Of a stretch of 64,000 nucleotides of DNA, positions 9,963 through 63,089 are shown in pieces (positions within the stretch are counted from its first letter, which is position 1; each line of letters starts with the position of its first letter). The DNA comes from Octopus sinensis (lineage: Eukaryota), in the NCBI RefSeq assembly GCF_006345805.1, contig NC_042998.1, positions 131,936,001 through 132,000,000 of the forward strand, given 5' to 3'. The position numbers were made by a program, and so were the translations under genes. The notes under the pieces were generated by a model, which was given only the letters and a program-made list of their open reading frames with translations, ran no database searches and was not told the DNA's origin.

Positions 9963-10360
9963 CTAGCAGTATCGCCCGGCGTTGCTCGGGTTTGTAAGGG
10001 AAATAACTATATAAGCATTTTTAGAGATGTAAAGTATAATAGCCATCTCAATATGGCTAACCACAAAGGGGGGGGGGTCTTACTGTAGCTTTTTACGTTC
10101 TGAGATTTAATAATACATTTTTAGAGAGTTACTTCCCTTATATAATAGCAAAAAATGCATTAAAAATGGGAAAAAAATGATGGTAATTTTTTTTTTAATC
10201 GTAGACTCATCGTAGACGCGCGCTAATACCCAGAATGGCTCGATATGAATCACGACTATAAGATACCCGCTTTTGGTTACACTGCACCGCAAAATGTGGG
10301 AGTAGTTAGGAATCTAAATCGTAGGAGACAGACACACAACTTGACTTTTATATATAAAGA
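9963..10360 (-). mobile_element. Non-autonomous Helitron
   Basis: On the minus strand it starts with TC (tctttatatataaaag) and ends with a GC-rich hairpin (cccgagcaacgccggg, 9975-9990) 8 nt before CTAG; inserted between host A and T with no TSD. Confidence 0.85.
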
Positions 10361-44703: not shown

Positions 44704-45430
44704 GATAGATAGATAGTGCTACAGGTGTGCAGTCAAACTACAAAATATGCAAATTGCTAAAATTACACGCATGTCTAAGAGATAGCTAAACAGGTTGGTA
44801 AAGGCAACAGCAAAATTTTAAATAACACAGAAGTTACGTAATCATTTCGAAAGACGCTATATTTCTACTGAGATGTACTTGCATAACAAGAGTTTTGATA
44901 TTAGATCGTGCTTCTGTTTTTTTTTAAACTGAAGCGATTGCAACGTGGAAGCTATAAACTAGCCAGTCAGAAAAACACAAAGGTCGTTAAAATCACTTAA
45001 GAATTTTTATTTTTTATTCTATTTTTAAAATTTTTTTTGTAAAACGGTGTCAAAGTTTTGTCGTTGAAAACTGCGATCTGTTCGCGGACTAAAAAAAAAA
45101 AAAAAAAAAAGAAATTGTGCTAATTTATTCTTTCACAGTCATTGGACTGTGGTCGGAATGGAGAGTAGCTTTTTAAAATATTCTCCAATGCAAGTAAGTT
45201 GTAACCATTTTATTGCCTGACATATTTTATGTACCTGAGAAGGGTGAAGCTTAAAGTTGACCCGAAAAGGAATTGAAATTAGAATGTAAAGGAACATAAG
45301 CAGGCATTACAACTTATTTTCATGAAACTTTATGCTATGCCATGCACTTGCTTTTAGTATAAGTAATAACTCTATATTCAAGCCACAACACTCGTACCTA
45401 CAACGTGTTTTAAAACAACTCTACGTATGT

Positions 45431-62090: not shown

Positions 62091-62487
62091 TCGGTCGTTT
62101 ATCATTCATCATTTCTGCTACCTGTTAATATGTAAGGTAACGGTATCTATAGAATTGTCTTCATTAGTCAACTCAGCTTACTCAAAATAAATAATAGGGT
62201 CGAAAAGATTACTAATGGCATTTGCTTGACAACCATATTATATAGGTTACATACCATTGGAACTGGGGCCCCGGTGCTTATCCTATTCATATTCTGGCTA
62301 TCATTTACTGAGAGACTATAAAGGATTAGAAACATGGCCGGGAAAAACAAGAGTGGGGAAGGAAATAGTATGAGCAAAAGCAAGGTCGACTGCAGTAACG
62401 TAATCAGGAAGAGGAGGATATTTGTGTGTGTAGGTGTGTATGCATACATATATACATACATGCATACGTATATATATATATATATAT

Positions 62488-62892
62488 ACAATTGCAGCGT
62501 GGAAGGTGTTTATAAGCCATTTAAGAAACACACAAAAGTCGTTCGATTCACTTCAACATTTAAGTTTAATTTGTCAAAATATTTTCGTCGCTAAAATCCG
62601 CGACCTGTTCACTGACAAAAGTCCGTGCTGCATCTCGGAGATGCAGCACGGTTTTTTGTCAGTGAACAGGTCGCGGATTTTAGCGAGATGCAGCACGGAT
62701 TTTTGTCAGTGAACAGGTCGCGGATTTTAGCGACGAAAATATTTTGACAAATTAAACTTAAATGTTGAAGTGAATCGAACGGCTTTTGTGTGTTTCTTAA
62801 ATGGCTTATAAACACCTTCCACGCTGCAATTGTTTTCGTTTCAGCACACGATCTCAGATCAAATTACTTGCTATGCGAGTACATCTCCGTAA
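62488..62892. mobile_element. Penelope-like element forming a fold-back palindrome (62488-62833) with a 47-nt internal re-start
   Basis: Apex catctc-g-gagatg (62631-62643); gagatgcagcacgg restarts at 62685; arms nearly identical; (TA)n flanks. Confidence 0.85.
62702..62751 (+). ncRNA. Type I hammerhead fold with variant core GUGAACA (G3-C8); mirror copy on the minus strand at 62570-62619
   Basis: TTTGTCA-GTGAACA-g-GTCGC ggatttta GCGAC-GAAA-ATAT-TT-TGACAAA: perfect 7-bp stem I, 5-bp stem II, palindromic AATATT stem III. Confidence 0.7.
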
Positions 62893-63089
62893 TATATATA
62901 TATATATATAATATATATATATATGAATACATGTACACATACATATATATCTATACATCTATATTATAATTAAGTACAAATACATTGATATAAATTCATT
63001 AACAATGCTAAATAATGCAATATAAATACATATATATATATATATTATATATATATATATATATACATTCAAATATACATTCATATATG

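Follow-up and report, generated by a model that had tools for sequence, protein, structure and literature searches.

The inverted insertion and its hammerhead motif

The window, that is, the whole 64-kb stretch of octopus DNA analysed here, holds a complete type I minimal hammerhead layout at 62702-62751 on the plus strand, as read from the sequence. The motif lies in a short, ORF-less, head-to-head inverted copy inside (TA)n, and all three motif copies belong to this one insertion, as the first-pass annotation of the window had maintained. The features are as follows.

44860..45115, minus strand: older relative of the insertion's pLTR, decayed; core GCGAACA (G3..C8)
62466..62488, no strand: (TA)n target, left flank
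62490..62635, minus strand: inverted arm; shortened version of the 3' repeat (pLTR) of the element, tail absent
62570..62619, minus strand (read 62619 down to 62570): second complete motif, identical, in the inverted arm; core 62612-62606
62639..62686, plus strand: partial tandem copy with 5' leader, core (62662-62668) and most of stem II; ends before C11.1/GAAA, without cut site
62686..62832, plus strand: direct pLTR arm, beginning with AGATG, the family's most frequent 5' end
62702..62751, plus strand: complete motif with G3-C8 core, G9a, 5-bp stem II and palindromic AATATT; predicted cut after 62744
62702-62708 with 62745-62751, plus strand: stem I, 7 bp, TTTGTCA base-pairing with TGACAAA
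62709..62715, plus strand: core GUGAACA (DNA GTGAACA); G3 = 62709, C8 = 62714
62716, plus strand: unpaired G (9a) between core and stem II
62717-62721 with 62730-62734, plus strand: stem II, 5 bp, GTCGC with GCGAC
62735-62738, plus strand: GAAA (G12-A13-A14 plus the A15.1 site)
62738-62743, plus strand: palindromic AATATT (short stem III)
62743 and 62744, plus strand: U16.1 and U17; predicted cut directly 3' of 62744
62833..62891, plus strand: tail of ~58 nt, at one end only (a Penelope hallmark)
62892..62921, no strand: (TA)n target, right flank

Stems I and II enclose the core in a three-way junction, and the fold of the motif scored z = -3.7 against 500 dinucleotide shuffles. G12-A13-A14, A15.1-U16.1 and the required H17 are all in place. 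The literal core C3-U4-G5-A6-N7-G8-A9 is not matched, as the motif has G3 and C8; the remaining five positions agree. Indeed, 3 and 8 are the sole departures among the 11 invariant hammerhead core positions, and together they form a Watson-Crick-compatible G-C. The short palindromic stem III and the unpaired 9a, hallmarks of the minimal hammerheads of Penelope-like elements (PLE min-HHR), are both present as AATATT and G9a. The first-pass annotation had proposed a hammerhead with an inverted 3-8 pair, departing from the consensus at exactly these two positions, framed by a 7-bp stem I, a 5-bp stem II, GAAA and AATATT and cut after 62744. The layout, the fold score and 5,236 genome matches (control 0) bear this out, and U16.1/U17 give the same predicted site. 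The annotation did not mention G9a and did not recognise the host element as a Penelope. The window gave no Rfam match at the gathering score; this blank carries no information, because Rfam returned no hammerhead match on the canonical-core sister loci L268 and L306 either.

Longer copies of the family run upstream into an ORF (793 open codons at locus L031, 1,042 at L066) that carries DKSG, GGAIG, YVDD, CQSNCAVC (CxxxCxxC) and VYQI..YIGET. The family protein P0001 had no Pfam match at E 0.1, and a solved-structure search with the element's protein returned no match; homologues of P0001 match Pfam RVT_1 and GIY-YIG. These motifs and homologue matches give the single ORF with RT and C-terminal GIY-YIG that characterizes EN+ Penelope elements. 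A protein labelled Octopus vulgaris matches one repeat family of the genome at 97%. The sense-strand motif was present in 25 of 30 ORF-selected loci and lay 900-1,135 nt downstream of the ORF stop in 20 of the 24 loci measured, which is where a min-HHR is expected: in the pLTR, in the sense orientation of the Penelope ORF. With RT, a CX2-5CxxC linker (here CQSNCAVC), C-terminal GIY-YIG, (TA)n targets, inverted pLTR and one-sided tail, the element shares the features given for Neptune clade EN+ PLEs in excerpts of PMC8557442. Judged by linker and (TA)n targeting, the host is a Neptune-like EN+ Penelope retroelement, an assignment made by features rather than by a tree with named references, and the linker also occurs in Nematis.

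The motif likewise resembles the PLE min-HHRs of Cervera and de la Pena 2014 (PMC4209133, in excerpt) in its type I layout, tiny palindromic stem III, G10.1-C11.1, unpaired nucleotide 9/10.1, pLTR location and many solo and inverted copies. It differs in the core: the consensus excerpted there is CUGANGAH with U3-A8 as the sole 3-8 variant, whereas the octopus core is G3-C8. Position 9a, H in that consensus, is G in the octopus family and in its C3-G8 sisters.

A transcript through both window arms folded computationally into a single long hairpin (-274.8 kcal/mol), and in such read-through RNA the motifs would be hidden inside a hairpin of roughly 150 bp. Since it also lacks an ORF, the window's own copy is, on this model, probably inert. 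Nine loci examined for a dimer partner had inverted or short tandem arrangements only, with no complete pLTR-ORF-pLTR copy among them.

The 3-8 pair across the family and its sisters

We searched 2.72 Gb of genome for the Penelope family of the window insertion, termed family A. Exact matches to the 28-mer spanning stem II through the cut site numbered 1,592 (control 0), the downstream anchor of the element occurred 8,066 times, and the 5,236 matches given above were obtained with positions 3, 7 and 8 partly free. The first 100 of these, counted by eye, comprised 96 G3/C8, 2 C3/C8, 2 G3/G8 and 0 C3/G8. Among 92 distinct copies, taken from 109 loci selected independently of the core, 83 were G/C, 4 G/G, 4 G/T and 1 C/C, with C3-G8 in none; the GTGAACA core anticipated by the first-pass annotation is indeed the family consensus. 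Contigs from four public runs with four organism codes had no variants at 3 and 8 at a level of at least 3%, and the variants listed there affected the tail, loop II, a single CpG and a single stem I wobble. G3-C8 characterizes the family as a whole and is not a product of decay.

Of the 9 loop/N7 sites, 4 bore changes common to at least 10% of family A copies; of the 41 structured sites, 1 did (p = 0.0025), and that change is a pairing-compatible U.G. The public-run contigs displayed the same pattern. When structured sites were compared with loop and tail together, the difference was not significant (1/41 vs 9/88, p = 0.17).

Single C8G variants (window 62714; loci L176-L205) were found in 4 of 92 copies against 0.3% for background C-G changes, a ~14-fold excess, and 243 were counted genome-wide. 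They are scattered across all subfamilies, and in all 5 inverted pairs examined just one of the two arms has the change, indicating that they arise at or after insertion; a mutation hot spot and reverse-transcription error are candidate causes. A G3.G8 intermediate lineage was ruled out on this same distribution of G8 copies. Nor did any subfamily turn up in which a G3.G8 or C3.C8 mismatch had become fixed.

To look for unrelated families, a generic G3-C8 pattern was run; its 3,851 matches compare with 3,713 in the control, were mostly an unrelated repeat lacking stems, and revealed no further family. Combining C3-G8 with the AATATT palindrome produced 32 matches against 7 in the control. Most are due to chance; the set includes the family A double variant L169 and locus L159, a lead to the canonical sisters.

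With 3, 7 and 8 left free, 169 matches (control 1) belonged to an older family, B; of 30 loci examined, 18 have G3-C8 and not one has C3-G8. Its N7 is mostly C, its loop II is different, and its palindrome, AATT rather than AATATT, differs in length from that of family A and is still palindromic. Two of the 30 loci resemble family A deletions, and no ORF remnants were found next to the copies at 33 loci. Homologous C3-G8 families, searched with a pattern that required Y3 and R8, gave 1,641 genome matches (control 1); these sisters have stem II GTCAC/GTGAC and G at 9a, with Penelope ORF remnants upstream in 3 of 30 loci. Family C, reached independently via its protein (55% identical), has C3-G8 at the same place. 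Among outgroup metagenome contigs encoding 29-49% identical proteins, the motif lay behind the ORF in 5 of 27 loci; four of these motifs are C3-G8 and one U3-A8, all with G9a.

In a tree of 54 pLTR copies with positions 3 and 8 masked, 23 A+B rows split from 31 canonical rows on a branch of 0.38 (support 89/98, bootstrap unsettled). The pair alignment comprised 36 of these rows, three long-branch family B rows and near-duplicates being left out. Positions 3 and 8 were paired in 34 of 35 distinct aligned rows, including 21 CG and 11 GC, and unpaired in one. Stem II was 98.9% paired across families, and its pair 4 covaries between A-U and G-C in the 36-row alignment, whose covarying cells amount to two events, not 19. 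Tail DNA homology between family A and the C3-G8 families is weak (blastn 4/30; profile E = 0.003), and the protein similarity is the firm link between them. The best nhmmer tail match, window 10338-10191, was an unrelated repeat from one training flank and was set aside; window 10191-10338 is an interspersed repeat, also in the flank of locus L304, not a Penelope tail.

Given C3-G8 in the homologous families, in family C and in four of the five outgroup motifs, together with the split in the tree, C3-G8 is most likely ancestral, and one double swap to G3-C8 would have arisen and been kept. As the homologous sister families are C3-G8, the swap is by sequence comparison a true compensatory change. 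The first-pass annotation had read the two reciprocal transversions as compensatory, and this part of its interpretation stands. Its further step, to selection for catalysis, is favoured by the concentration of shared changes in loop and N7 sites and by a palindrome that altered its length yet remained palindromic, but it stays conjectural, because there was one swap event, C9 is fixed in a sister family and cleavage is unnecessary for Penelope insertion in vitro. Many copies likewise do not make many tests, since the swap is a single phylogenetic event. At the level of sequence, there is good support for G3-C8 as a naturally occurring compensatory inversion of the 3-8 pair, in a Penelope lineage whose matched sisters are unswapped.

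A9 is important for hammerhead catalysis. A young subfamily of family C (L266-L295, e.g. L268:2945-2998) carries C9 instead in all 27 motif-bearing loci of 30, whereas older members have A9, and outgroup contig L328 has C9 together with U3-A8. The fixation of C9 in this young sister family indicates that core departures can spread.

Cleavage, copy ends and alternative readings

Crystallography and laboratory mutants indicate that inversion of the 3-8 pair is tolerated, and Lunse et al. 2017 reportedly contains many Penelope-linked hammerhead variants. The only natural 3-8 alternative in the literature examined, taken from excerpts, is U3-A8 (Perreault 2011, PMC3088659; Schistosoma Cercyon, PMC4209133), likewise a natural covariation. 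U3-A8 amounts to two transitions with a possible route through U3.G8, whereas G3-C8 takes two transversions via a mismatch inactive in laboratory tests. In the Anolis Penelope (Poseidon) hammerhead, C3G and G8C each abolish cleavage and C3G/G8C restores part of it (PMC11167929); a review (PMC8495972) likewise reports the double mutant as partly active, both in excerpt, and the first-pass annotation had stated this partial activity correctly. Unlike these laboratory-made mutants, G3-C8 in octopus occurs naturally, as the state shared by two related families. Natural G3-C8 was not found in the portions searched of the literature (including PMC6155905, PMC8495972, PMC13481778, PMC11014351 and bioRxiv 10.64898/2026.07.22.740005), a search in which colon notations went unmatched and to which Lunse et al. 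2017, Przybilski and Hammann 2007, Martick and Scott 2006, a 2012 review or supplements could add earlier examples. The nine GUGA strings in the available supplement text of PMC4209133 include no G3 core.

The ribozyme is most likely a Penelope minimal hammerhead whose core departs from the literal consensus and whose cleavage is predicted. Starting from direct observations, namely the fold, the family-wide G3-C8, the position ~1 kb behind the RT/GIY-YIG ORF and C3-G8 in homologous families, we think it probable that this type I motif represents a G3-C8 lineage set apart from C3-G8 sisters and self-cleaves slowly after 62744 via palindrome-paired motifs. One ancestral double swap from C3-G8 would have been retained in that 3-8 pairing positions the 2'-OH of nucleotide 8 whichever the base order. 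Cleavage would occur in a dimer, in which either the two pLTR motifs within one tandem transcript or two separate RNAs pair. Computed folding put the cost of closing stem III within a monomer at 5.4 kcal/mol, and the double-hammerhead dimer (-27.2 kcal/mol) at about the level of two open monomers (-26.6 kcal/mol). Both values agree with the dimer model for minimal hammerheads in excerpts of PMC4209133 and PMC6765202; metazoan minimal hammerheads are described as weak, even when dimeric (PMC4209133, in excerpt). The uncut RNA would be the template of inserted copies, with a slow, dimer-dependent ribozyme processing tandem transcripts and most insertions coming from uncut RNA.

For the Anolis element, excerpts of PMC11167929 report that uncut RNA is the main insertion substrate, that cleavage is dispensable for insertion in vitro, that RNA ends at the cut site were not seen, and that reverse transcription begins internally at two sites, defining the tail. 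The octopus copy ends fit this picture: 3' ends gather in two places, around 62833 and at or past 62886-62890, and 96 of 119 copies have their start 5' of the motif (stem I), as against 3 of 119 near the cut site. The family copies show no build-up of 5' ends at the cut site that could serve as a genomic sign of cleavage. Instead, 5' ends accumulate at AGATG, ~23 nt before the core (51 copies, from loci picked by tail), and 9 of 12 copies beginning exactly there carry an extra 5' G that is absent from the longer element. This end may be a capped transcript start, with the cap copied, or a splice junction; the latter option comes from the branch-point-like and 3'-splice-site-like sequence directly before AGATG in longer copies (window 62685-62690; L086-L115, L207-L235).

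Position 17 is U in both G3-C8 families (A and B) and in young family C, and C in most older canonical sisters. A G3-C8 variant is stated in an excerpt of PMC3884650, as data not shown there, to be more active with G17 than with C17. U17 may avoid a G3-C17 mispair trap, a hypothesis built on one event.

Other explanations were weighed. A chance match or assembly artefact could draw on the Rfam blank and on the palindromic junction of the locus in a microsatellite, but it is already refuted by thousands of matches with zero in the controls, by independent public-run contigs invariant at 3 and 8 at the 3% level, and by a location that agrees with that of Penelope hammerheads. Alternatively, the fold may be kept as a structure, such as a protein binding site or 5' RNA signal, with the swap preserving the tertiary fold and in vivo cleavage negligible. 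Inserted copies retain the whole motif and begin ~23 nt upstream of the core, insertion in vitro is independent of cleavage (PMC11167929, in excerpt), the young C9 family is successful, and Naiads thrive without canonical hammerheads (PMC8557442, in excerpt). We nevertheless consider this reading unlikely: GAAA, U16.1, H17 and the palindromic stem III, which are needs of cutting or dimerization, are kept in families A and B, the C3-G8 sisters and the outgroups.

Less likely still is that the ribozyme was dispensable and both changes drifted in a master lineage, the pair being restored by coincidence or by brief selection that is now relaxed. The single swap event, a family tail conserved almost as well as the stems and the fixation of C9 in a sister family speak in its favour. 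Yet 9 of 11 core letters are shared by family A and its canonical sisters, against a divergence of ~30% in aligned tail columns, and the two letters that did change are pairing partners. Moreover, no subfamily was found with a fixed G3.G8 or C3.C8, and the G8 singles are dispersed, sitting in a single arm in all 5 inverted pairs. The slowly cleaving minimal hammerhead is therefore the reading we prefer.

An inversion on a dated branch, with unswapped sisters in one genome, provides matched natural constructs, and these bear on whether Penelope hammerheads are selected for cleavage, given its dispensability in vitro. As the first-pass annotation had expected of CUGANGA-based searches, descriptors that insist on CUGANGA or CYGANGA give too low a hammerhead count, with more than 5,000 motifs missed here. 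We advance a broader claim tentatively, judging it slightly more apt to fail than to stand: that this is the first documented natural active G3-C8 hammerhead lineage, in which a two-transversion valley was crossed, possibly aided by U17, and the swap persisted over two or more family radiations, that selection acts on Penelope hammerheads to keep them cutting, and that CUGANGA surveys miss thousands per genome.

Two further observations concern copies elsewhere in the genome. At six loci, including L099, L104 and L113, one arm of the inverted pairs has an identical junction sequence in place of the 5' half of its core; the shared junction suggests that the palindromic non-autonomous unit may itself have been amplified. 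At L071:1325, an unrelated repeat and its inverted partner, inserted beside an old family copy, carry a canonical CTGACGA hammerhead-like motif.
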